Shown piece by piece: positions 10,375 to 42,162 of a stretch of DNA of 55,001 bases (position 1 is the first letter of the stretch; each line of letters starts with the position of its first letter). The notes under the pieces are model-generated. The model saw only the letters and a program-made list of their open reading frames with translations. It was not told where the DNA came from and did not search any database. The stretch comes from a virus: the IMG/VR virus record IMGVR_UViG_3300045015_000042. The stretch is one strand, 5' to 3'. A program made the position numbers and the translations under genes.

Positions 10375-10862
10375 TTCTTGTTGTAGACGCTGTTGGCGTA
10401 ATCGCTGCCCGTGGGCCGTAGGATGATTTTGCCCATGCTGTCCGACTGACGGTCGAACTGCATGTCGCGGAAGTCTTCCTCGGCCTCTTTGCTCTTGCGG
10501 AAGAACCGCTTCAGTTCGTCGGCCACCGCCTCAACGATCCGCTTTGCCGCCTCTTCTTCTTTGATGTCGTCCATCATGAAGTCTTCGTACATCTCTTCCA
10601 GATCGAGCAGGTACGGACGGCCGTAAGGTTCGGTGTTCTCCCGCTTCTGAACTCGGTACGCAATCGTGTCACCAACTTGATACACCCGCACGCCCCCGAA
10701 GTCGCTGTTGTCGTTGGGCGAAAGCAGGTAGATGTACGGAGTGTCTTCATCGAGAAACGGCTTCGCCTTCATCTGCCCACGCTGGAAGACCTGTTCCAGA
10801 ATGTGCAGGTGCCGCTTGCCGTCTCGCTTCCGTTTGTTGACAAATTCGAGGAAGGTTTCCAT
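10371..10862 (-). CDS. Hypothetical protein, 163 aa.
   Basis: Track ORF. Convergent with 9637..10374. Confidence 0.55.
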   Translation of the reverse strand: METFLEFVNKRKRDGKRHLHILEQVFQRGQMKAKPFLDEDTPYIYLLSPNDNSDFGGVRVYQVGDTIAYRVQKRENTEPYGRPYLLDLEEMYEDFMMDDIKEEEAAKRIVEAVADELKRFFRKSKEAEEDFRDMQFDRQSDSMGKIILRPTGSDYANSVYNKN

Positions 10863-13597: not shown

Positions 13598-15148
13598 ATG
13601 ATGAAAAAGTTCACTTTGTTCCGCGAAGAACGAGACGCCAAGACCCCCATCTCGTCCAAAATCAAACTGCAAAAGCAAGAAGGCTCTGCGGAGTTTTCTC
13701 CTTTCCGCGTCGATAAGGCTACCCGCCCGAACCTCCGCACACTGATCCAAGCCTTCAAGGGCAGCGGTCAGGTCGGCCTCGGCTACACCACCATCGACAA
13801 GTCGAAGGGCGAACACGAACCGCTGATGAAGGCCAAGAACTTGTGGCTCACCGGCGGCGCGGTTCGCGACCACCTCAAGGGCAAAACCCCGAAGGGCTAC
13901 GACCTCGTTACGGACGCCACTCCTTCCGAAGTCCGCATGATTCTCTCCAACTCGGAACAACCGTTTACTGAGGTCAAGCCGAAAGACGGCGAGATGGGTC
14001 AGGACGAGCGGTACGCCGATCTGCCGAGCGGCAACAAGCGTCGGTGCTTCTACGCCAGCCGTTGGGACGGACAGGGCAAAGAGATCGAGATCACCGTCGA
14101 GATAAACGGCGAGAAGTTCGAGCTTGCGTCCCTCGGCAAGCACGGCAAAAGTCGCCGGGTGAACCCGGACAAAGCCGACGTTGCGACCAGCGTCGAAGAA
14201 GACAGCATGGGTCGCGACTTCACGATGAACGCCATGTATATCCCATTGAGTCAAAGTGACGGCGAGAACAGCGAATTGATTGATCCGCATGGTGGCGCAC
14301 ACCACCTGAAGGCGGGCGAGGTCAAGTTTATCAACAGTCCTATGGACAAGATGCGTGACGACCCGATGACGGCATTCCGTTACCTCAATCAAACTGGCAA
14401 GTTCGGAAAGTTTTCGGGAATCGGCGACAAGGAAAAAGCGGCGATTGGGCAGTTCAAAGACATGGCCGACGTTGACCCGTCCGAGATCCGCAAATCGTTC
14501 CTCAGCGGCCTCGAAGATCCCGACATGGACGCCAGAGGGTACATGGGCGCGGCTAAGGGTCTGGGCCTTCTGAACGTCGTGTTCCCTGATCTCGAATTCC
14601 GCGAAGACGACATGCCGCCGGACTTCCGTGGCGACCGCTGGTTGGCACCGGCTTGGGTTCTCAGGGACAACGACCCCGAAAAGGTCAAGAAGGTACTGGG
14701 CGGCGGCGGCTGGAGCAAACAAGAAGCATCGGACATCGCCTATCTGGTCAAGATCGCATCTTGGGCTGAAAAGGATGGGTTCAGTCCCGACAAGCTCAAG
14801 GACGTTAAGGGCCACACCGGGCTGACCAAGAGCAAGATCCGCGAATGGCTCCAAATGATCAACAAGGGTCAGGGCGGCGAAGCGGAAGGTCTGTTCAAGG
14901 ACGGCGAGGACGAAAACGATATGGGCGGCGAGGAAGGTCCGCAGGAGAAAAGAATGGGAGCGGCCAAGTCGCTCACCAGACCGTCTTCTGACGAAGGGGA
15001 TGCAGAGGAGAAACCGGAAAAGAAGGATGACGGCGGCGAGAAAAAGGAGTCGATGTCTTGGGGCCGTATGATGGAACGCATCAAGAACCGCCCGGCCCAA
15101 CAGGAGCGTCCGACCGAGTCGGCTGGTTGGGTTCCACTCATCCGCTGA
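13598..15148 (+). CDS. Pol-beta superfamily nucleotidyltransferase of the class II CCA-adding / poly(A)-polymerase head family (516 aa). No HD domain, and an acidic/basic low-complexity C-terminus.
   Basis: LTGGAVRDHLKGKTPKGYDLVTD (GGxVRD...D..D head motif) and RDFTMNAMY (RRDFTINA motif). AGGAG Shine-Dalgarno. Confidence 0.6.
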   Translation: MMKKFTLFREERDAKTPISSKIKLQKQEGSAEFSPFRVDKATRPNLRTLIQAFKGSGQVGLGYTTIDKSKGEHEPLMKAKNLWLTGGAVRDHLKGKTPKGYDLVTDATPSEVRMILSNSEQPFTEVKPKDGEMGQDERYADLPSGNKRRCFYASRWDGQGKEIEITVEINGEKFELASLGKHGKSRRVNPDKADVATSVEEDSMGRDFTMNAMYIPLSQSDGENSELIDPHGGAHHLKAGEVKFINSPMDKMRDDPMTAFRYLNQTGKFGKFSGIGDKEKAAIGQFKDMADVDPSEIRKSFLSGLEDPDMDARGYMGAAKGLGLLNVVFPDLEFREDDMPPDFRGDRWLAPAWVLRDNDPEKVKKVLGGGGWSKQEASDIAYLVKIASWAEKDGFSPDKLKDVKGHTGLTKSKIREWLQMINKGQGGEAEGLFKDGEDENDMGGEEGPQEKRMGAAKSLTRPSSDEGDAEEKPEKKDDGGEKKESMSWGRMMERIKNRPAQQERPTESAGWVPLIR

Positions 15149-25232: not shown

Positions 25233-25751
25233 ATGGGAACAGAGTTCGTCCCCGAAGGCTGCGACTTCCAAACGGCCGAAGCCGTCAACATCGAAAGCTG
25301 CACCCTCCTCGGCTTCAACAACTGCTTCTCGGTCAGGCTCGCGGACGGCAGCTACGCCGATGTCGTGAACTTCTACCACGAAGACATCGAAGACCTTCTC
25401 GAAAAGAAGGAAATCACTTGGCCGATCCAAGTCGCGGTCCTCGGCCCGAAGACCGTCGCTTTCAACGATCCGCGACTGCCGCACGGCAAATATCGCAAGG
25501 ATTTCTGTACGGTCTGCTGCCCGGTCGAACTCCTGCCGACTCCGCAACGCCTCCAGATCGCTCGCGAGATTCAGTGCGGGAAGACCAAGTACACCCGGCA
25601 CGAAGGCGGCATGGTAATCATCAGCCACAACCACCGTTGTGAAGGTGCGCCGAAGCTGACGAATTGGAAGGTCGAGATCAACCCGAATCCGACCGTCGTC
25701 TACTGTCTGGACGAAGCCGCCCTCAAAGCCTTTGACGGAGACAAGAAATGA
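25233..25751 (+). CDS. Hypothetical Cys-containing protein, 172 aa.
   Basis: Track ORF. Confidence 0.55.
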   Translation: MGTEFVPEGCDFQTAEAVNIESCTLLGFNNCFSVRLADGSYADVVNFYHEDIEDLLEKKEITWPIQVAVLGPKTVAFNDPRLPHGKYRKDFCTVCCPVELLPTPQRLQIAREIQCGKTKYTRHEGGMVIISHNHRCEGAPKLTNWKVEINPNPTVVYCLDEAALKAFDGDKK

Positions 25752-26935
25752 ACTGGCTCGGCTGGCTCGGTGCAATCCTCGGCGTCCTCGCGAGCGTGTG
25801 GGTGCTGTTCCGCTACGCCGGATCAATAACGATCCGTCTCGACGCCCGCACGTTCAAGACGCTGTACGAGATCTCCAAACGACCGGGCCACCGGAAGTTC
25901 ATCATCAGCGAAGAGTTCATCACCGAAGCTAAGTACCCCGTCGAGTTCCGCGCCCTCTGCTTCTTCGAGGGCTGCCCGTGGTTCTACCTCAACCACGGCG
26001 AACGGTTGCTGACGGCGGGGTGGCACGGCAAGGACAGCGTGACGCATCTGACCTGTTTACGTTGGCGTGCCGCCCGCGTCAAACAGTACCTCGACTTCAA
26101 GATCAAAGAGATCCAGATGAACAGTCTGGGCGTCCCGGCCGAAGTCATCATGCCCAACTACACGGACATGATCGGCCTCATCAAAGGGACGCCCCCGCAG
26201 CCCGCTCTGGACCCGCAACTGTGGGAAGACATCGAGAAGGATGCGGCCGAAGTGTTCTCTGGGAAGAAGCAGAAGAGTGGCGCGTTGATCTACGGCCCGC
26301 CCGGTAACAACAAGACGTTCTTCATCAAGTATCTGGCGACCAAGTACCGGGTGCCGATCAAGATTATCACGTTCACACCGGACTTCAGTAACTTCGATGT
26401 GATGGGGATTTTTAGCCAGATCAGCAGCCGGTGCATCGTACTGTTCGAGGACTTCGACAACTACTTCGACGGCCGGCGGTGCATCCTCGGAACCGAGAAC
26501 CACAGCATCAAGTTCACGTTTGATCAGATTCTCAATGGGCTGGACGGGGTCTACAATACCTACGAGAACTGTTTTTTCGTGATGACCGTTAACGACATAA
26601 CGAAAGTCGATCACGCGCTCAAAAACCGTCCGAGCCGCTTCAAGTTCGTCCGTGAGTTCAAGTGTCCCGATCTGCAAACGCGGATGAAATTGTTGCCGAA
26701 GCAATGGGCCGAGAGCAGTGAGGGGTTGAACCTCGACCAGATCTTCCGGCTCAAAGAGTTCCACGAACAAGGACTGTCTCTGGACGAAGCCAAATCGAAT
26801 CTTGGCCAAGCCGACAGGACCGCAGAAATCGCGAAGATGGCACACCAGCTTTACGAGAAGCGGGTTCGCGAAGGTCTGGCCGGGGATAACGAGGGCGACT
26901 GGTACGAAGCCAAAAGGATACTGGGTGTCACTTAA
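25748..26935 (+). CDS. Membrane-anchored AAA+ ATPase, BCS1-like (395 aa). N-terminal transmembrane helix, Walker A GPPGNNKT, Walker B IVLFEDFD, sensor-2-like ALKNRPSRF.
   Basis: Motifs read directly. ATGA overlap with the previous gene. Confidence 0.65.
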   Translation: MNWLGWLGAILGVLASVWVLFRYAGSITIRLDARTFKTLYEISKRPGHRKFIISEEFITEAKYPVEFRALCFFEGCPWFYLNHGERLLTAGWHGKDSVTHLTCLRWRAARVKQYLDFKIKEIQMNSLGVPAEVIMPNYTDMIGLIKGTPPQPALDPQLWEDIEKDAAEVFSGKKQKSGALIYGPPGNNKTFFIKYLATKYRVPIKIITFTPDFSNFDVMGIFSQISSRCIVLFEDFDNYFDGRRCILGTENHSIKFTFDQILNGLDGVYNTYENCFFVMTVNDITKVDHALKNRPSRFKFVREFKCPDLQTRMKLLPKQWAESSEGLNLDQIFRLKEFHEQGLSLDEAKSNLGQADRTAEIAKMAHQLYEKRVREGLAGDNEGDWYEAKRILGVT

Positions 26936-30588: not shown

Positions 30589-31047
30589 TTACTTGATCAC
30601 GAACGCACGCAGTTCCGACACTTTTAGCAGCCGCGCCGCATTGACGCGGCTCACCCCGTCCATAACCCGAATGCCGCTGTCGTCGCTGTAAACGATGATT
30701 GGCGGCGTCATCTTCCTGAAATCGGGACCACGCACCGCCAGAGCTTGAGACTGTTCCAGCGTGTCTGGAGCCTCGCGGCCCAACATCTGGGCGAAAGCTC
30801 CCATCATTTCCAGAGTCTTCTTCTTGTCGCCGGCCGGTACGTTCGCCAAGCTCGCCAACGGAAACATTTCCTGATACGTCACTTCTCGGCGTGCTGCGAG
30901 AGCCTTCTGAATAGTGCCGAAATCCATCCCCGCAGTGTCTAGACTGCTCGACCGCGACAACACCTTTGCCTCGGCAATGCTCCTGACGGGGCGGTATTCA
31001 ATCGCTTCGATCCACAACTTGAAGTCTCTCATGTCGGTATTTAGCAT
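30589..31047 (-). CDS. ParB-like nuclease-domain protein (152 aa; IIVYSDDSGIRVMDGVSRVNAARL).
   Basis: ParB N-terminal box-like motif. Lone minus gene between plus genes. Confidence 0.4.
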   Translation of the reverse strand: MLNTDMRDFKLWIEAIEYRPVRSIAEAKVLSRSSSLDTAGMDFGTIQKALAARREVTYQEMFPLASLANVPAGDKKKTLEMMGAFAQMLGREAPDTLEQSQALAVRGPDFRKMTPPIIVYSDDSGIRVMDGVSRVNAARLLKVSELRAFVIK

Positions 31048-31079: not shown

Positions 31080-31775
31080 ATGTTGAGCTTCAAACACTGG
31101 CTTACCGAAATCAAGAAAACCGGCGGCGACGATCACGGAGTCGATGACGACGACTTCGAGGATGACGATTTTGATCAAGAAATGGGCATGGACGACGGCA
31201 ACCCCGATGTCGTATTCGGCCGGCGCGACGAGAACGCCAAAATCGAGCCGAGTGAGATCCTCAAGGCTCTGGGTTTGCCCGGCGACAAGCTCGAATACCA
31301 CGACAAAGGCACTTTCGCCCTCGTCTACAAGCACCCGACCGACAAGAACCTGCTCATCAAACTGACGGCCGACGCCAAAGACGCGGCCAATCTCGAAAAG
31401 GCCCAGAGCTTGAAAAGCCGCTGCATCGTCAGGGTTCACAAGGTTGCTAAGGTCCGTGAACACGCTTTCGCGTTGATCGTGGATTTCATCAAAGGCCCGC
31501 CGATGGTTTACGGCAGTGATGGTTTGTTGTCGTTGATCAGCGGTGATAGGTGGCAAGATGCGAAAGAAGCCGTCAGGGGCATTCTGAAACCCGACCGCAC
31601 CAGAGTGGAAACTCTCAATCACTTCAAGAAGAACACTCCCCAGGAACTGACCAAGTTGAGCGAGCTTTTTGCTACGCTCGCCAAACTTGAAGGACTGGGG
31701 ATCGAAATTGACGACTTTGGCGACAACATTCACGACGCGGGCGACCACTACGTCATGATCGACTTAGGGCTTTGA
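31080..31775 (+). CDS. Protein-kinase-like fold protein (231 aa). Gly-loop/Lys-like GTFALVYKH...LLIKL and DFG-like IDDFGDNIH...VMIDLG, RIO/Kdo-kinase-like, after an acidic N-terminus.
   Basis: Motif resemblance only. Confidence 0.35.
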   Translation: MLSFKHWLTEIKKTGGDDHGVDDDDFEDDDFDQEMGMDDGNPDVVFGRRDENAKIEPSEILKALGLPGDKLEYHDKGTFALVYKHPTDKNLLIKLTADAKDAANLEKAQSLKSRCIVRVHKVAKVREHAFALIVDFIKGPPMVYGSDGLLSLISGDRWQDAKEAVRGILKPDRTRVETLNHFKKNTPQELTKLSELFATLAKLEGLGIEIDDFGDNIHDAGDHYVMIDLGL

Positions 31776-35893: not shown

Positions 35894-37170
35894 CAGAAAG
35901 GAATCTCCTCGTCGCCGAAGATGTCGCCGGGAACGTATTTCACCGGCTCGCGTTTGTTCTTCTTGTCCTCCAGCGTACCCGACAGGATCTCGTGCAACGC
36001 CTCCTTGTACCTCGTCGCCGCAGTCCCCTCTCTACGCGGAGGACCGGAACGGTACAGGTTCCACAACCAGTCTATCGCCCACGTCGAATACTCGTCGTCG
36101 TCTTGGTAGCCGGCTTCCATCCCCGGCTTGTTCCTAATAGTCTCCAGTCCGAACGTCGGCAACACCTCGGTCGCATACGCTTCCCAGTCGAACTTCCGCT
36201 TGCTCCAGTATTTGGCGACGTGGTCGTCGCCGAAAGCGTCGTGGGTCGAAGGGATGTGCAGCCGCTTGTACAGGTCGGCGTAAATCATCCGCTTCTCGGC
36301 GTACTCTCTGTCGCTGTGTTCGTAGCGCGACTGAACGACGCCGTCCAGTTCGGACTTCGGGATACCGAGCCGATTCGCTTCGCGAACGGCGTCCCCGTAA
36401 GTGTTCACCCGGCTCATGATCGCGTCCACGTCACGCTTCGTCAGCTTCCGGCGGTAAACGCTGTTCTTGTAGCCGTACCCGCCCTCGACCGGCTTCGCCG
36501 CCGGACCCGACTCGATCCCCTCTTCCTTGTCCCGGCGCGGCCACAATATCACCGTCAGTTCACGGGCCAGATCCGCCGCACCCTTCCCGTGCTTCCCGCC
36601 CCACTGCCCCGGATTCGTCTTCGACGCCTTCAACAACTGCCGCAGACCCTTCCGCTCCGGTTCGCTCAACCCGTCGATCAGTTTCTGCTTGACCCGGCCC
36701 TTCAGTGCGTCAACCAGAATTTCAAGCTCCGGTTCGTCTACGAAGTCCACGGTGTTGTGGCGGCGTTCGGCGGCGTATCCCAACATTTCAACGACCTGAC
36801 GCCAGCTTCCGACGATGCGGCTCCGCATGTCGAAGTGCCGGCGTTCCGTGCTGCGCATGTAGTTGGTTTTGGGGACGCGGCGGGGCTTCTCGTCGTTCTC
36901 TCTGGGGTCGAGTTTGTTGCCCAACCACTCCTGGGCCATCTTCTTGGCCGTGTGCGGGCTGTCGGCGATGACGTAGACCACGTCCTCGGCGAAGTCGCCG
37001 GTCTTCCACTTCCGCTGGTTCTTCGGCGCGTGGAACGTCACGCGAAACTTTTTGTAGCCGTCCTCGTAGTTGCCGAGGATCGCGTGTTCGCTAAGACCGC
37101 CGATCTCTTCGACCGTAACGTCCAGCGGCCCAAGCTCAATAAACGAGCGGAATGACATACTGAATTCCAT
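35893..37170 (-). CDS. Hypothetical protein, 425 aa.
   Basis: Track ORF. Confidence 0.6.
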   Translation of the reverse strand: MEFSMSFRSFIELGPLDVTVEEIGGLSEHAILGNYEDGYKKFRVTFHAPKNQRKWKTGDFAEDVVYVIADSPHTAKKMAQEWLGNKLDPRENDEKPRRVPKTNYMRSTERRHFDMRSRIVGSWRQVVEMLGYAAERRHNTVDFVDEPELEILVDALKGRVKQKLIDGLSEPERKGLRQLLKASKTNPGQWGGKHGKGAADLARELTVILWPRRDKEEGIESGPAAKPVEGGYGYKNSVYRRKLTKRDVDAIMSRVNTYGDAVREANRLGIPKSELDGVVQSRYEHSDREYAEKRMIYADLYKRLHIPSTHDAFGDDHVAKYWSKRKFDWEAYATEVLPTFGLETIRNKPGMEAGYQDDDEYSTWAIDWLWNLYRSGPPRREGTAATRYKEALHEILSGTLEDKKNKREPVKYVPGDIFGDEEIPF

Positions 37171-37204
37171 GCCTTATTTAGCCGCTCCCGACAATAACTA
37201 AGGC

Positions 37205-37693
37205 ATGCAAACTTTCCGTCAGTGGATCGAATCGTCCCTTTCTCACCCCGCACAGGTCGCTTTCAACAGCGTCTTCGAGGCCGCTGTCGCCATCCGCAAG
37301 TTCATGAACAACCTCAAGGGCAAACAGCAAGTGCCGCAACAGGACGTGTACGGCATCGCCGACGCCGCCCAGAAGCTCTATTCCGCCATCATCAACATGG
37401 ACAGCACGACACGCGGCGAAATCGAAACCGGGCAACACACCGACGCCCTCTCGAACCGCGTCTACTACGCCATGAAGGACATCGACATGATCGTGTCGGA
37501 CATGAAAGACAACCCGGAGCGGTACGGCGACATGGCGACTTCCGCCGTCTCAAGGCTCGGCGGAAATGGCTACAGTCAAACCGTCCGCACGGCCGGAACA
37601 GCCGGGAACAATCACCTGCAAGACATGTACAAAGAACTGGTCGGCCTGCGGCAGAAGATCCGGTCGGCCTACGACAACATGTTCAAGGACTAA
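37205..37693 (+). CDS. Hypothetical protein, 162 aa.
   Basis: Track ORF. Confidence 0.55.
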   Translation: MQTFRQWIESSLSHPAQVAFNSVFEAAVAIRKFMNNLKGKQQVPQQDVYGIADAAQKLYSAIINMDSTTRGEIETGQHTDALSNRVYYAMKDIDMIVSDMKDNPERYGDMATSAVSRLGGNGYSQTVRTAGTAGNNHLQDMYKELVGLRQKIRSAYDNMFKD

Positions 37694-37929
37694 TCGCCCT
37701 GCCAGCCGGCGATCACGATAACCTTCTCGCCCTCGATCTCTTCGCCCTCTTCGTAGAGGTCTTCCGTGAAACACGAGCCGTCGTCCTGTTGGAACGCTAT
37801 CTCACAACTCGTCGCCACGCCGCTATAACTCAGATCATCGAATCCGCAGGACGCGATGATCTTCAGGTTGTGGTTGGCCTCGTCCTCGTATAGCTTGTCA
37901 ACCAGTTCCTTCAACTCGAACAGTCTCAT
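37690..37929 (-). CDS. Small acidic protein (~79 aa, start MRLFELKEL).
   Basis: Internal ATG with a GAGGAGGA Shine-Dalgarno in an ATGA overlap. Confidence 0.5.
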   Translation of the reverse strand: MRLFELKELVDKLYEDEANHNLKIIASCGFDDLSYSGVATSCEIAFQQDDGSCFTEDLYEEGEEIEGEKVIVIAGWQGD

Positions 37930-38195
37930 TCTTCCTCCTCGTAGCCGCCGAGGTCTACGATGTGGCTGGTGCCTACTGGTGGCGTCGGCGGCGTCACCGG
38001 GGAGTAGTGGCTGAGTTGGCTCACGGGGAACCCCATGTCGCAACCCATGATGTAGTAGTACAGGTTGTTGCCGTTCTCTTCCTCGTCAATGGCGACCACC
38101 ATCGCGAACAGCACGCCGTTGAGCATGTCGTGTACCCAGTACAGACCCTCTTTTTCCGGCGTCCCCTCGATCCAGTTGATCTCGTTCATGGTCAT
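37926..38195 (-). CDS. Small protein (~89 aa, start MTMNEINW).
   Basis: Internal ATG with a GGAGAA Shine-Dalgarno in an ATGA overlap. Confidence 0.5.
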   Translation of the reverse strand: MTMNEINWIEGTPEKEGLYWVHDMLNGVLFAMVVAIDEEENGNNLYYYIMGCDMGFPVSQLSHYSPVTPPTPPVGTSHIVDLGGYEEEE

Positions 38196-38443
38196 TTCTC
38201 CAGTTCTGCGAGTTCCGCGTCGGACATTTCCCACTGCCGACACTTGTTCAGTGCGTCTTCCAACTTGTCGCCCGTCCTCGGAGGCGGCGCGGGCATCTCA
38301 CATTCCGCTTCGATCTCGAAATCCGAACGGTTCAGTCTGGCACCGTCGTCCCGGCGAACCACGAACTTGATCATGTTCGGGAACACACCCGTCACCTTAG
38401 AAATCATCGACCGGATCTCGTCTTCTGTATAGATCGTTTTCAT
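38192..38443 (-). CDS. Small protein (~83 aa, start MKTIYTEDE).
   Basis: Internal ATG in an ATGA overlap. Confidence 0.45.
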   Translation of the reverse strand: MKTIYTEDEIRSMISKVTGVFPNMIKFVVRRDDGARLNRSDFEIEAECEMPAPPPRTGDKLEDALNKCRQWEMSDAELAELEK

Positions 38444-38772
38444 AGCCTGATCTCTGCCCTTTCCAGTGCCGCGAACAGTTGATCCGCCAGCCGCTGCTTG
38501 TGTTCGGCGTCGAACGCACCAGCGAAATCGTGCATCTCCCCTAAGTGCAAACACGACTGGAAGAAATTGTAGTCGAACGAGATCCGGCGAATCACCTGAT
38601 TGGTTTCGGGATCGATCCGGCAGCCCTCATCCTTGACGCCGCTGATGAAGACGTGGTTCGCAAGGTTTTCTTCTTCTTGCTTGAACCGCTCGGCACGGTA
38701 ATCTTCCTCGGTTCTGGTCGAGTTGATGACGGGGATGCCTTTTGCCAGACACTCTGCAACCAAGTCGTGCAT
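38440..38772 (-). CDS. Hypothetical protein, 110 aa.
   Basis: Track ORF. Confidence 0.5.
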   Translation of the reverse strand: MHDLVAECLAKGIPVINSTRTEEDYRAERFKQEEENLANHVFISGVKDEGCRIDPETNQVIRRISFDYNFFQSCLHLGEMHDFAGAFDAEHKQRLADQLFAALERAEIRL

Positions 38773-38773
38773 G

Positions 38774-39019
38774 TCACTCCGGTGGTAAGTAGCGGTCGGT
38801 AACGTTCCGACCGGGTTTCACTTTGATGATGCCGTTCTCTGACGGCGGGCCGTCTTTACCGTACTTGATGTACAAGTAAGTAATGTAATCGGCCGCATGG
38901 GGCATTCCGTAAAGCGGCGGGTGCTGACCCATCAAATTCACAATGTCCGGGTACAAACCCAGTTTGGCACCCGAACGCTTCGTGTCCTCGACTATCGTCA
39001 GCCATTCTTTGAAGTTCAT
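38774..39019 (-). CDS. Hypothetical protein (~81 aa from MNFKEW). The longer track ORF (to 39163) gains its N-terminus from the 26-bp duplication and out-of-frame ARH sequence.
   Basis: See the duplication at 39076..39127. Confidence 0.4.
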   Translation of the reverse strand: MNFKEWLTIVEDTKRSGAKLGLYPDIVNLMGQHPPLYGMPHAADYITYLYIKYGKDGPPSENGIIKVKPGRNVTDRYLPPE

Positions 39020-39027
39020 GACGGTAT

Positions 39028-40158
39028 CTAGCCGCCACGCCGCCTCGTCTTGCAAAAAGAAGCCCCCACAATCCTTACACTTGTACGTCGCCGGGTTCGT
39101 GTACACTTGTACGTCGCCGGGTTCGTGTCGCCATAATAGCTGCCGCCGTTCTCGTGCAGACACACCCGCGTCCCGTCGTCTTCCTTCGGACCAAAATCAA
39201 TGTAGTCCTTCAACTCCCGCGCCGGGGCCGGACAACCCAACGCCTTCAACGCCGACTCGATCATGTCCTTCCGGTCCAAACCGTCCACGAACTTCGCCGG
39301 AATCCCGCCCAACCCCCAATACGCCCCCGCAAACTGCCCACACACCGCACCCGTCGTATCCGCGTCCTCACCCAGATTGACGGCGCGAAGTACCGCCTCA
39401 TCGAAACTGTCCGCGTCGTGGAACGCCCACAGAGCCGCTTCCAGAGACGCCACCACCCAACCCGACCCACGAACCATGTTCGGCGTCTTGTTCCGGTAAC
39501 TCCCCTGAATCACGTTCTCGATCAACGGGTCGAATTGCTCGGACTTCCTGGCAATCTGAACCGGCTCCCACTCCGGGTCCAACACCGTTTCCCTAGACTC
39601 GCCGTTAATAAGGCCAGCCAGCACCAAGTTCATATAACGACACGCCGACCGACACTGGTCGCTCGCGTGCGTCACCTGACTGGAGTCTGAGGCTTTCTCG
39701 GTGAGAGGGCTGACGTGGCCTTCGGCTAGTAGATCGGCGGTGTGAATCGCAACGGGTGCCAATCGCATGATGCTGCCGTTGCCCGAAGATCCGGGTGCCG
39801 GGTCGCCCGACTTCCAGGGATCTCCGTCGCGCTCGAAGTTCATCAAGGCGTCACGGGTCGTACACCCGATGTCGAAACAGAACCCGTTCACGCTGTAGCG
39901 GCCGTTCTGGAACCAGTCCAAGTAACGGCTCATCTGGTCCTTCAAATCCCAACCCTTCTCGCCGATGCTGTGCGCCAACGCCAGAGCCATCGACGTGTCG
40001 TCGGTCCACTGGCCTTTGGCGAGGCTGTGCGGCCCGCCCGAACGGTAGGTGGTCACCAACGCAAACGTTCCGGGGGAACGGAACTCGACCGCAGCCCCCA
40101 GAGCGTCACCGATTGCGAGGCCGTACAGACAGCCCCGTTTCCTATCAAGATTGTTCAT
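39028..40158 (-). CDS. ADP-ribosylglycohydrolase family protein (DraG/ARH-like), 376 aa. The last 24 aa are a frameshifted tail created by the 26-bp duplication.
   Basis: Motifs GLAIGDALGAAVEF, GNGSIMRLAPV and DADTTGAVCGQFAGAYWG. Confidence 0.75.
   Translation of the reverse strand: MNNLDRKRGCLYGLAIGDALGAAVEFRSPGTFALVTTYRSGGPHSLAKGQWTDDTSMALALAHSIGEKGWDLKDQMSRYLDWFQNGRYSVNGFCFDIGCTTRDALMNFERDGDPWKSGDPAPGSSGNGSIMRLAPVAIHTADLLAEGHVSPLTEKASDSSQVTHASDQCRSACRYMNLVLAGLINGESRETVLDPEWEPVQIARKSEQFDPLIENVIQGSYRNKTPNMVRGSGWVVASLEAALWAFHDADSFDEAVLRAVNLGEDADTTGAVCGQFAGAYWGLGGIPAKFVDGLDRKDMIESALKALGCPAPARELKDYIDFGPKEDDGTRVCLHENGGSYYGDTNPATYKCTRTRRRTSVRIVGASFCKTRRRGG
39076..39127. repeat. Perfect 26-bp tandem duplication (TACACTTGTACGTCGCCGGGTTCGTG x2) at the 3' end of the ADP-ribosylglycohydrolase gene. 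Not a multiple of 3, so it is frame-shifting.
   Basis: Read directly. Removing one copy fuses the ARH ORF in-frame to 38774..39019 (…TNPATYKC-KDCGGFFLQDEAAWRLDTVMNFKEW…). Confidence 0.85.
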
Positions 40159-40432
40159 GTGTGATCTTTCCGCTGACGTGATCGAAGTCCCACTTGGGGA
40201 GGGACTTCAAGTAATCTTCGCCGACGACCGTGATTTTCTCAGGGTCCATTTCGAGGTACGGCTGGCCGGGATGTGTTTCGTTGCCGAACTTGAAGTTGAC
40301 CGGGGCCAGATACCACGCACCCTCGAACGAGAGAGCGGTCCATTCCTTCCCCTCGATCACCACGTCCCACAACGGGAGGTCGCCTTCGAGGGTCGCCAGA
40401 TTGAGCCGCTCCACTTGTTCTTCGGTGATCAT
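40145..40432 (-). CDS. Small protein (~95 aa, start MITEEQVERL).
   Basis: Internal ATG with a GAGAGAGAAG Shine-Dalgarno in an ATGA overlap. The upstream part of the track ORF is Arg-rich junk. Confidence 0.5.
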   Translation of the reverse strand: MITEEQVERLNLATLEGDLPLWDVVIEGKEWTALSFEGAWYLAPVNFKFGNETHPGQPYLEMDPEKITVVGEDYLKSLPKWDFDHVSGKITHEQS

Positions 40433-40773
40433 TTCTTCTCTCTCTCGTCGGGACCGGCCTTCGGCTTCGGGAACGACGTGACCTCGATCCGGTCGATGCT
40501 GCCGAGGTAGCCGTCGAAGTAGATCTTCACCTTCGGCTGCTCGTTCTCGGTCAGCCACTTCACGAACTCGGTCGTCGTGATTTTCTTCCCGTCGAGCTTG
40601 ATCTTCGCGCTGCTGATGTTGTAAACGTCTTTGCTCTTTTCGAGCGTGATCTTGACGAACCACGGGCGGTTGCCGGCCGGCATGAACTGGATCGTCTCCA
40701 GAACGCCCTCGACCGGCTTCGCCTCTTCGCCGGCCCCGACCCCCAACGCCACCGACAGGATCATTGCGAACAT
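40429..40773 (-). CDS. Small secreted protein (~114 aa; signal-like MFAMILSVALGVGAG).
   Basis: Internal ATG with an AGAGGA Shine-Dalgarno. Confidence 0.5.
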   Translation of the reverse strand: MFAMILSVALGVGAGEEAKPVEGVLETIQFMPAGNRPWFVKITLEKSKDVYNISSAKIKLDGKKITTTEFVKWLTENEQPKVKIYFDGYLGSIDRIEVTSFPKPKAGPDEREKK

Positions 40774-40955
40774 GGTTTGTCCTCTTCTTCCGCCATCGGG
40801 AGTTGACAGTTGCACGCGGGCCAGCCCCGCATCAACACGACACCCAAACGACAGACGTTGTTGAACGTAGCGAAAACCAAGATCAAGATCAAGAAGAAAA
40901 AGAATCCCTGACCCAACGGACTCCAGTGCGCGATCATGTCGAGAATCTTGTCCAT
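40761..40955 (-). CDS. Small membrane protein (64 aa; FFFFLILILVFATF).
   Basis: Track ORF. Overlaps the next start by 13 nt. Confidence 0.4.
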   Translation of the reverse strand: MDKILDMIAHWSPLGQGFFFFLILILVFATFNNVCRLGVVLMRGWPACNCQLPMAEEEDKPCSQ

Positions 40956-41023
40956 TGCGTTCCCACCCGTGGTAAAAGTTCAACGGCAACTAATTATACC
41001 AGGGCGGCACAGATAGATATTGC

Positions 41024-41734
41024 ATGAACGGTTTCCGAGAATTCTTCAACTACCAAGACCTGATCAGCGACCTGGGGGATGCGGGTGCGGAAGACATCGG
41101 CGGCATTCACGAGTTCCAGATCAACCCCGCCGGCCGCAAGAAAATACTAATCGTCGGCGGCGTTCACGGCGACGAGGAGTCGGGTCCGCGTGGGGTCGTG
41201 GCCTACGCACGGGGCAAGCCCGATCCCAAAAACCACCTGATCTTCATACCCTGCGCGAACGCACACGGGTTCGACAAAGGGGTTCGGACCAACGCCGACC
41301 GACGCGACATTAACCGGCACTTCCACCCCAAAAAGCAAACCAAAGAATCCGAAGCGGTCTGGAAGCGTGTTTTGAAACACGAACCCGATTTCGTCGTCAG
41401 TTTGCACGAGGTCGATTACAAAACCGCCTTCATCTACTGCCAGTCCAGCGGCAAAAAGTGTGACCTCCTGCCGCTGGCGAAAAAACTGGTCGGGGAAATA
41501 CAGAAGGAGTTCCCGGTCCACAAGGGCAAATTGAATGACGGACCCTTCAAGAACCGTTGCAGCGGGAGCAGAAACGGAGTCGTCTCCTGCAAACAGACCT
41601 CTCTCGACACGCTCGAAGATCAACTGCTCAAAGAAGGCATACCGTCGTTGACTACCGAGTTACCTTCGGGAGCAAGCCGCGCCAAGAAAATCGAAGTGAC
41701 CGTCAAAATGCTCGAAGTAATCGGGCAATGGTAA
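41024..41734 (+). CDS. M14-family zinc carboxypeptidase-like protein (236 aa; HGDEESG ... NAHGFDKGVRTNADRRDINRHF ... HEVD). Candidate peptidoglycan peptidase or lysin.
   Basis: HxxE plus NP(A)xG...DLNRNF-type motifs. Confidence 0.5.
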   Translation: MNGFREFFNYQDLISDLGDAGAEDIGGIHEFQINPAGRKKILIVGGVHGDEESGPRGVVAYARGKPDPKNHLIFIPCANAHGFDKGVRTNADRRDINRHFHPKKQTKESEAVWKRVLKHEPDFVVSLHEVDYKTAFIYCQSSGKKCDLLPLAKKLVGEIQKEFPVHKGKLNDGPFKNRCSGSRNGVVSCKQTSLDTLEDQLLKEGIPSLTTELPSGASRAKKIEVTVKMLEVIGQW

Positions 41735-41735
41735 A

Positions 41736-41775
41736 CAATGAAGGCCAGACGTTTCTTCACGTCTGGCCTTCATTG
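41736..41775. terminator. Bidirectional terminator hairpin (16-bp stem CAATGAAGGCCAGACG/CGTCTGGCCTTCATTG) between convergent genes.
   Basis: Perfect 16-bp stem. Confidence 0.7.
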
Positions 41776-41787
41776 TAGCGGTAGCCG

Positions 41788-42162
41788 TTAAGACGAAGAG
41801 GGCGGGAGCAACGACAAGTGTATCGAGTTCGTCCTGATTTCGAGGGAACCGCCAGCAGGCACGAGGATGCCCTGGCCTCCCAAGCTCTGCCACATGACTT
41901 CCGTCATGCCGTCCAGCCAGATGCTGAACCCGTCTATCATGGTCGCCACGGCACAAGGGTGAGAGATCACCTCCTCAAAGGGGTAAACGGCCTTGATGAA
42001 CGCACGCTCGCCGCTACCGCTGTCTACCCAAAAACTAACAGTCAACCGTGACTTCAAGTCCTTGAGTAGTGTTCCAATCGGGAAAACTACGGCGTCGTTG
42101 TGCCAAACGCCTTTGTACGTTTCCGCCTCACGCAACCACTTCTTCTGTAACCACTGGTTCAT
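41788..42162 (-). CDS. Hypothetical protein (~124 aa, start MNQWLQKK).
   Basis: Internal ATG with an AAGGAAG Shine-Dalgarno. Confidence 0.5.
   Translation of the reverse strand: MNQWLQKKWLREAETYKGVWHNDAVVFPIGTLLKDLKSRLTVSFWVDSGSGERAFIKAVYPFEEVISHPCAVATMIDGFSIWLDGMTEVMWQSLGGQGILVPAGGSLEIRTNSIHLSLLPPSSS

Follow-up and report, generated by a model that had tools for sequence, protein, structure and literature searches.

Gene content of the locus

The window, by which we mean the whole 55,001-nucleotide stretch of viral DNA that was analysed, encodes on its minus strand a 376-aa ADP-ribosylglycohydrolase (ARH; 39028–40158). The gene is present in the list of open reading frames, it matches Pfam family PF03747 and proteins in the PDB, and the exact protein occurs on 8 contigs. 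Its product includes a frameshifted tail, which starts within a 26-bp tandem duplication near the 3' end of the gene, and a gene for an 81-aa protein follows on the same strand. Most of the window consists of ORFans, together with a tRNA-nucleotidyltransferase-like gene, an AAA ATPase, an AstE/AspA-like gene and an HNH-like match; no tRNA genes were found in the window. The gene order g111-g95-ARH-small81-g110-g83-g89...g425-g259 is common to three related loci (L033, L034 and L035), and more distant relatives of the ARH and of the small gene occur on very large phage contigs of 532 kb (IMG/VR), 586 kb (NCBI) and 595 kb (LR756511.1). For the group, the evidence for a phage origin is good; for the window itself, hallmark genes do not prove it. 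A megablast search of 36000–42000 against the INPHARED phages gave no match.

Residues 9–288 of the ARH align with almost the entire PF03747 model (positions 1–286 of 287; E=5.4e-73, 246.6 bits against a cut-off of 26.2). This envelope, together with conserved metal-site residues, marks out a catalytic domain (39295–40134, minus strand) that is untouched by the duplication. The PHROGs match is phrog_6572 (E=5e-64), and the ARH-family assignment made in the sequence-only reading is upheld by both profile collections. Among proteins of known structure, phmmer matched 2cwc, a Thermus ARH (E=2e-60), 6dre, deposited as an ADP-ribosyl-(dinitrogen reductase) hydrolase (E=3e-57), and 2woc, which is DraG (E=3e-27); the match to ARH3 (about 1e-11) aligned only the N-terminal half. 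In alignments of 11 and 26 homologues (A2 and A4), residues E25, T52, D53, D54, D265, D267 and T269 show no variation and T268 almost none, and the motifs WTDDTS and GEDADTT are conserved. E25, T52-D53-D54 and D265-x-D267-T268-T269 correspond to the motifs that form the binuclear metal site in solved structures of DraG and ARH3. We assign the gene to PF03747 on the basis of these comparisons, which also place it nearer to the DraG/Tri1-like enzymes (the Arg-specific subgroup) than to the ARH3-like (Ser/PAR) enzymes.

The enzyme resembles DraG/Tri1-type hydrolases (PF03747; 2cwc, 6dre, 2woc) in its full-length family match and conserved metal-site motifs. Unlike them, it has a knuckle extension of approximately 60 aa, frameshifted in this genotype, and it is encoded in a large uncultured phage, next to neither a toxin nor a nitrogenase regulator. 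Bacterial homologues, of which that of the planctomycete Rubinisphaera margarita is an example, typically have a length of about 307 aa, 62–65% identity and no C-terminal extension. A phage ADP-ribose eraser is known from T4, whose NADAR protein AdfN acts as a counter-defence against DarTG1 (PMC11825919). The window ARH is likewise a phage-borne orphan hydrolase, potentially able to undo ADP-ribosylation carried out by the host. The analogy with AdfN is functional only; the window enzyme differs in fold and family, being an ARH and neither a NADAR protein nor a macrodomain. By analogy with other phage-encoded erasers (PMC11825919), the ARH may reasonably be proposed as a means by which the phage counters host toxins that act by ADP-ribosylation.

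The 26-bp tandem duplication

TRF, run on the 55-kb window, reported a perfect tandem array at 39076–39128 (period 26, 2.0 copies, 100% matches; unit TACACTTGTACGTCGCCGGGTTCGTG). String comparison and a repeat search agree that 39076–39101 is identical to 39102–39127, with one additional matching base (T) at 39128, and the junction between the copies reads GGGTTCGTG followed directly by TACACTTGT. The array is the sole perfect repeat with a period greater than 12 in the 55 kb, and the chance expectation for a perfect 26-bp repeat (about 55000 x 4^-26) is negligible. The perfect duplication described at 39076–39127 is real, and it shifts the reading frame of the ARH 3' end. In the direction of the gene, copy 1 (39102–39127) comes first and encodes DTNPATYKC in the native frame, and copy 2 (39076–39101) is out of frame in the ARH. 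Single-copy versions of the gene were sought in related genomes and are present in L033, L034 and L036. No inverted repeats or hairpins that might have caused slippage were found flanking the unit.

The duplication takes effect after ARH residue 352, that is, 64 residues past the end of the catalytic domain. From there the protein continues, as had been deduced from the sequence, with 24 out-of-frame codons (39031–39102, minus strand) that encode TRTRRRTSVRIVGASFCKTRRRGG and run into a stop. This tail is arginine-rich and has a non-coding-like codon score. Codon-usage log-odds, trained on the window's own genes, turn negative in the ARH frame and positive in another frame exactly here, and a jump of the coding signal at the second copy fits a young frameshift. 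The sequence-only reading had called the event very recent, and it does look evolutionarily young, since the copies are identical and no relative carries the duplication. Removing one copy in silico yields an uninterrupted ORF that ends at 38774 and is 452 aa long (the earlier estimate was ~460), so the single copy does read in frame into the downstream ORF.

A second copy could also have been produced during assembly or scaffolding, for instance through an untrimmed k-1 overlap; 26 equals k-1 for k=27, and such an overlap would leave perfectly identical copies. Exact look-ups recovered the 376-aa product, including the frameshifted tail, and both DNA copies in seven contig loci (L026–L032) from six data sets, namely JGI 3300045004, 3300045005, 3300045010 and 3300045421 and Logan SRR35359074 (whose contig is present in five samples) and SRR35364242. 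An exact-sequence look-up likewise recovered the downstream 81-aa product in JGI and Logan data sets. These loci are 100% identical to the window over 1.6–12 kb and have two copies in 7 of 7 cases. De Bruijn assemblers cannot create a copy–copy junction k-mer that is absent from the reads. Given this requirement, and given that two pipelines applied to six data sets returned the same sequence in contigs of differing lengths and end points, with the repeat deep inside each, we reject an assembly artefact, also raised in the sequence-only reading, as almost certainly wrong. The assemblies with the duplicated allele represent one clonal genotype, probably from one project, so they document fixation for one population only and carry no information on the age of the duplication. 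Exact searches with the junction and the 26-mer gave no match in IMG/VR or JGI metagenome contigs, collections that evidently lack this genotype.

The knuckle, the lost stop codon and the downstream gene

The window protein falls into a 90% cluster with three relatives, of which P0031 (L033) and P0032 (L034) share about 88–91% amino acid identity with it; the fourth relative, P0034 (L036), is 78% identical. The C-terminal sequences of P0031, P0032 and P0034 end in RVCLHENAHYYGDTNPPTYKCNDCGDCFLKGEMV, RVCQHENHYYYGDTNPPTHKCRDCGESFLHGEMVVA and ACDHPHAHYHGDTNPPAYKCDDCGAIFIKG, respectively, each followed by a stop, and the stop in P0030 (L035) comes directly after RVC, the knuckle being entirely missing. 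All three knuckle-bearing relatives have a single copy of the 26-bp sequence and a conserved C-x-H...C-x-x-C, in the context C-x-H...Y-K-C-x-D-C-G-x-x-F, and they stop 3–9 codons past the F of C-x-x-C-G-x-x-F. The comparison of these three proteins indicates that the ancestral ARH 3' end had one copy, a C-x-H...C-x-x-C knuckle and a stop a few codons further on, and that a clade-specific extension of ~60 aa with this CxH...CxxC knuckle defines a phage ARH clade.

When aligned with P0031, P0032 and P0034, the native part of the window extension, which runs to residue 352 (39103–39294, minus strand), comprises a linker and the first three knuckle ligands, C333-x-H335 and C352. The fourth, C355 in the numbering of the collapsed sequence, lies in an out-of-frame remnant of the native 3' end (39038–39075, minus strand; K-D-C-G-G-F-F-L-Q-D-E-A-A) that aligns with CNDCGDCFLKGEMV and its stop in L033 and with CRDCGESFLHGEMVVA and its stop in L034. 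The window ARH thus keeps C333, H335 and C352 and has lost, through the frameshift, the fourth ligand of a putative four-ligand zinc knuckle. Tail identities are 28/42 between the window and L033, 28/42 between the window and L034, and 29/42 between L033 and L034; values this similar give no sign of extra drift and provide no clock.

The knuckle probably binds a metal, zinc; the collapsed sequence has a sub-threshold Pfam match to zf-Mss51 (E=0.026). In an AF2 model of P0034 (mean pLDDT 92 overall), the catalytic domain is confident, and a low-confidence linker connects this core to a moderately confident beta-hairpin mini-domain (residues 329–342, pLDDT 62–80). With at least two losses of the knuckle in the clade, we read it as a probable adaptor module, possibly for targeting, outside catalysis. 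The 280-residue catalytic core is predicted to be still functional without it, since L035 lost the knuckle independently and cellular homologues do not have it. Even with catalysis retained, loss of the knuckle could abolish a phage-specific function.

Inactivation of the enzyme, one outcome proposed in the sequence-only reading, seems unlikely because the catalytic domain and metal-site residues are unchanged. A broader version of this idea, that the duplication is a pseudogenising lesion in an ARH on its way to loss, would explain the destruction of a conserved knuckle, the arginine-rich tail with its non-coding-like score, and the flux of the ARH 3' end and its neighbourhood among relatives. 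We nevertheless consider it quite improbable, as the ARH has no further lesions, the full Pfam domain is intact along with the metal site, and the knuckle-less P0030 and the tail-less bacterial homologues point to an autonomous core.

At the position of the ancestral stop, which is TGA in L033 and L034, the window has TGG (39035–39037, minus strand), as seen in the junction DNA and in a MAFFT alignment. The junction reads GCG TGA CGGCTAGATACCGTC ATG in L034 and GCG TGG CGGCTAGATACCGTC ATG in the window, and L033 has GTG TGA in the same column. This TGG is out of register in the present ARH frame. The conserved spacer CGGCTAGATACCGTC upstream of the small gene (39020–39034, minus strand) is identical in L034 and near-identical in L035, L033 and L024. 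The ARH now ends at a TAG within the spacer (39028–39030), 8 nt before the ATG of the small gene; a stop is available in the shifted frame because this TAG is part of a conserved start-proximal motif. The sole reason that the collapsed copy reads through into the small gene is that the old TGA stop is now TGG.

The downstream gene (38774–39019, minus strand) belongs to a conserved family of small phage proteins (MNFKEWL...KLGLYPD...GQHPPLYGMP.AADYITY...LPPE; family alignment A3). When the 108 residues encoded after the repeat served as a HMMER query against 1.84 billion representatives, 27 proteins matched, nearly all of them stand-alone and 57–123 aa long; most have their residue 1 aligned to query residue 28, which is the Met at 39019 that opens MNFKEWL. 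The gene for the best homologue, P0002 (81 aa, 74% identical), stands by itself, flanked by genes of opposite orientation, in T4-like surroundings (gp13-like, RNA ligase, Thg1, NUDIX) that lack an ARH. Orthologues of the small gene (79–89%) follow the ARH in L033, L034 and L035, and both JGI and Logan gene callers predict the 81-aa gene separately in the window's genotype. From the stand-alone homologues that begin at the same Met and from the separate gene calls, we conclude that the downstream ~100 aa constitute an independent conserved gene and not a split-off ARH domain. The sequence-only reading had proposed a test of whether this segment forms a known domain; Pfam and PHROGs searches with the C-terminal 138 aa returned nothing significant. 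The AlphaFold2 model of the 81-aa family is poor (mean pLDDT 58). A 129-aa ORF with a GTG start (38774–39163) was rejected, its first 20 codons being out-of-frame ARH sequence.

These data bear on the proposal that the ARH and the downstream ~100 aa are an established two-domain protein, only recently split by the duplication. With one copy removed, the frame stays open over 452 codons, and in one natural case, P0001 (L023), a 70-aa core of the small family is fused behind a HAD-like segment; P0001 was also the only match in a homologous-protein search with the C-terminal 171 aa. Fusions of the small module do therefore occur, and none is with an ARH. All four ARH relatives of this phage group stop before the next gene, those with one copy ending at their own TGA where the window has TGG. 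Across 22 IMG/VR and 80 metagenome ARH loci, the match extends to about residue 340 at most and never into the module, whose family consists of stand-alone small proteins starting from the same Met. An ancestral two-domain protein is therefore highly improbable, and the same holds for fission of a C-terminal ARH domain.

We also weighed a slippage-prone switch, in which the 2x26-bp array toggles at a useful frequency between separate proteins and an ARH–small-protein fusion. Slippage can delete a copy from a short perfect tandem repeat, and in this genotype a contraction gives an in-frame fusion. Phase-variable repeats are recognized by copy-number variation among assemblies of the same strain, and all seven loci have exactly two copies (these are contigs, and a minority single-copy subpopulation is possible). 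The exact fused protein was not found among 15 billion proteins, relatives have no repeat at this site, and a 26-mer present in two copies is ill suited to slippage by the standard of known contingency loci. Such a switch is very unlikely on this evidence. A shade less likely still is its most elaborate form, in which the array and the TGG at the former stop would constitute a reversible device, with copy loss fusing an active ARH, via a restored zinc knuckle, to a putatively capsid-targeted small protein. If the switch did exist, a phage subpopulation would make, and possibly package or deliver, the ARH fusion, and the majority would make two separate proteins.

Two further sequence patterns were observed in the window. 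At least eight genes of the window, including the 81-aa gene, and the whole small family start with M-x(1,2)-F-x-x-[WF]-[ILV]...E; several small-family members begin MKTFxEW[LV], and [LI]-x-E is conserved. These N-termini resemble the capsid targeting sequence MKTYQEFIAE of T4 internal proteins, a resemblance of sequence only that bears on the neighbour and not on the ARH. Separately, TA[AGT]ATA-N4-7-ATG occurs at 9 sites in the window, all of them before ORFs of 81–515 aa, against 0.36 in shuffles; GGCTARATACC has 5 matches against 0.4 expected, and the start-proximal motif is conserved at orthologous starts in six related loci. In the spacer, this motif resembles the T4 late-promoter box, TATAAATA. 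A late-promoter-like motif in this position would place transcription starts at or adjoining the ATG.

Order of events and significance

We favour, at a probability of roughly 80%, a joint account in which a phage ARH with an intact core has undergone a knuckle-disrupting 26-bp duplication and a TGA to TGG change at its stop, next to a separate small gene. The ancestor would have been a DraG/Tri1-like metal-dependent ADP-ribosylhydrolase in a large uncultured phage, with a C-terminal knuckle mini-domain of ~60 aa and a TGA stop, and the separate 81-aa gene would have started ~15 nt past that stop. Within the knuckle, 26 bp were duplicated in tandem, with a microhomology of 1 nt, for which replication slippage offers the simplest explanation. 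This +26 shift leaves residues 1–352 as they were, exchanges the final cysteine of the knuckle and the native C-terminus for 24 unrelated residues, and moves ARH termination to the TAG in the spacer motif, 8 nt before the ATG. Separately, the old stop has changed from TGA to TGG. The likely outcome is a fixed duplicated allele that yields a catalytically intact ARH without its knuckle and, expressed apart from it, the small protein.

The order of the two mutations can be read in two ways. One possible order has the duplication first, followed by neutral decay of a stop that was by then out of frame. The other has the stop lost first, producing a 452-aa fusion that buried the N-terminus of the small protein, after which the duplication was selected for restoring termination; the present arrangement would then reflect fission of a short-lived fusion. 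The copies are still identical, which implies that little time has passed since the duplication and makes a neutral TGA to TGG change within that interval a priori unlikely, and this favours loss of the stop first. The new stop, 8 nt before the ATG, also lies where the stop of a 175-aa upstream gene is found in L033, and members of the small family share a free N-terminal motif similar to the T4 capsid-targeting sequence. However, a rescue by reverting one base (TGG to TGA or TAG) would be far more probable than one by duplicating 26 bp, and the small gene, with a start-proximal motif of its own, might be expressed separately even within a fusion. Neither a genome with TGG and a single copy nor, among 15 billion sequences, the fused protein was found. 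We therefore regard this compensatory order as tentative and on the whole unlikely. No closer relative that could order the mutations was found in JGI metagenome contigs, the best match being 60% identical.

Under the joint account, the duplication is a lesion of an ordinary kind, specific to one lineage, that affects the accessory tail of an enzyme from a known family. Its wider biological importance is small; what it records is a frameshifting micro-duplication, real and fixed, at the accessory end of a phage ARH. The tempting reading of a split two-domain protein is an accident of a mutated stop codon, and it cautions that in-frame read-through after a lesion has been "repaired" is no proof of ancestry. 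The T4 capsid-targeting-like N-termini and the late-promoter-like motif observed alongside may outrank the duplication itself in interest.

The small gene beside the ADP-ribosylglycohydrolase

The separate 81-aa gene (38774-39019, minus strand) just downstream of the ADP-ribosylglycohydrolase (ARH) gene belongs to a conserved phage family whose members are stand-alone proteins of ~60-120 aa. Other members occur at the related loci L024 (8001-8246), L033 (7649-7894), L035 (2684-2932) and L037 (5001-5201), and the family consensus is MxFKxWLxLxE...RTGAKLGLYP..ALGQYPPLYG.P.AAD.ITY..I.Y. Neither Pfam nor PHROG returned a match to this family, the sole match in annotated phage records is in a 595-kb uncultured phage, and the AlphaFold2 model is of low confidence. 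Among relatives, the 3' junction of ARH is a hot spot for indels. In L033 (7113-7640) ARH and the small gene are separated by an additional 175-aa gene, whose end, ...KYRGRG-TAA, coincides in position with the TAG in the window. The ARH of L035 is truncated after RVC (2660-2684), and in L036 (3855-4109) the small gene is missing, together with two of its neighbours.

Other features of the window

Annotatable neighbours are few: a tRNA nucleotidyltransferase / poly(A) polymerase head domain protein (13598-15148, plus strand), an AAA ATPase (25748-26935, plus strand) and an AstE/AspA-like (succinylglutamate desuccinylase/aspartoacylase) protein (41024-41734, plus strand). Most other large ORFs in the window had no match in Pfam or PHROG. 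A tandem repeat with a 252-bp unit at 1157-2035 (3.5 copies, 78% matches, TRF score 964) probably corresponds to protein-coding sequence with internal repeats.

A recurrent N-terminal peptide

The motif M-x(1,2)-F-x-x-[WF]-[ILVF]..E recurs on otherwise unrelated proteins of the window and is enriched at gene starts far above chance. It is found at 10862, 31032, 35893, 37170/37158 and 39019 on the minus strand, and at 31080, 37205 and 41024 on the plus strand. The motif is similar to MKTYQEFIAE, the capsid targeting sequence of T4, and the proteins that carry it may be packaged in the head, with cleavage after [LI]-x-E. In P0001, a natural fusion at L023 (943-1557), an N-terminus like this targeting sequence (MQFRQWVENS) and a HAD-like segment (FDYDGVLHTD) are joined to the 70-aa core of the small-protein family.

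A DNA motif close to start codons

Several genes in the window carry the motif (C)TA[AGT]ATA(CC) 4-7 nt upstream of the ATG. There are nine such sites, compared with 0.36 expected from shuffles, and all nine precede a long ORF (ATGs at 5876, 13075, 31032, 37170 and 39019 on the minus strand; 13601, 16280, 31080 and 41024 on the plus strand). The divergent genes starting at 31032 and 31080 have in common an intergenic region of 47 nt, in which two copies of the motif lie in mirror image. Orthologous sites are present in L023, L024, L033, L035, L036 and L037, and in P0001 the start-proximal motif, gcCTATATACaatATG, points to Met19 of the protein as called as the true start. The motif has the look of a late promoter box of the T4 type; if it is one, its proximity to the start codon would make the mRNAs leaderless or nearly so.
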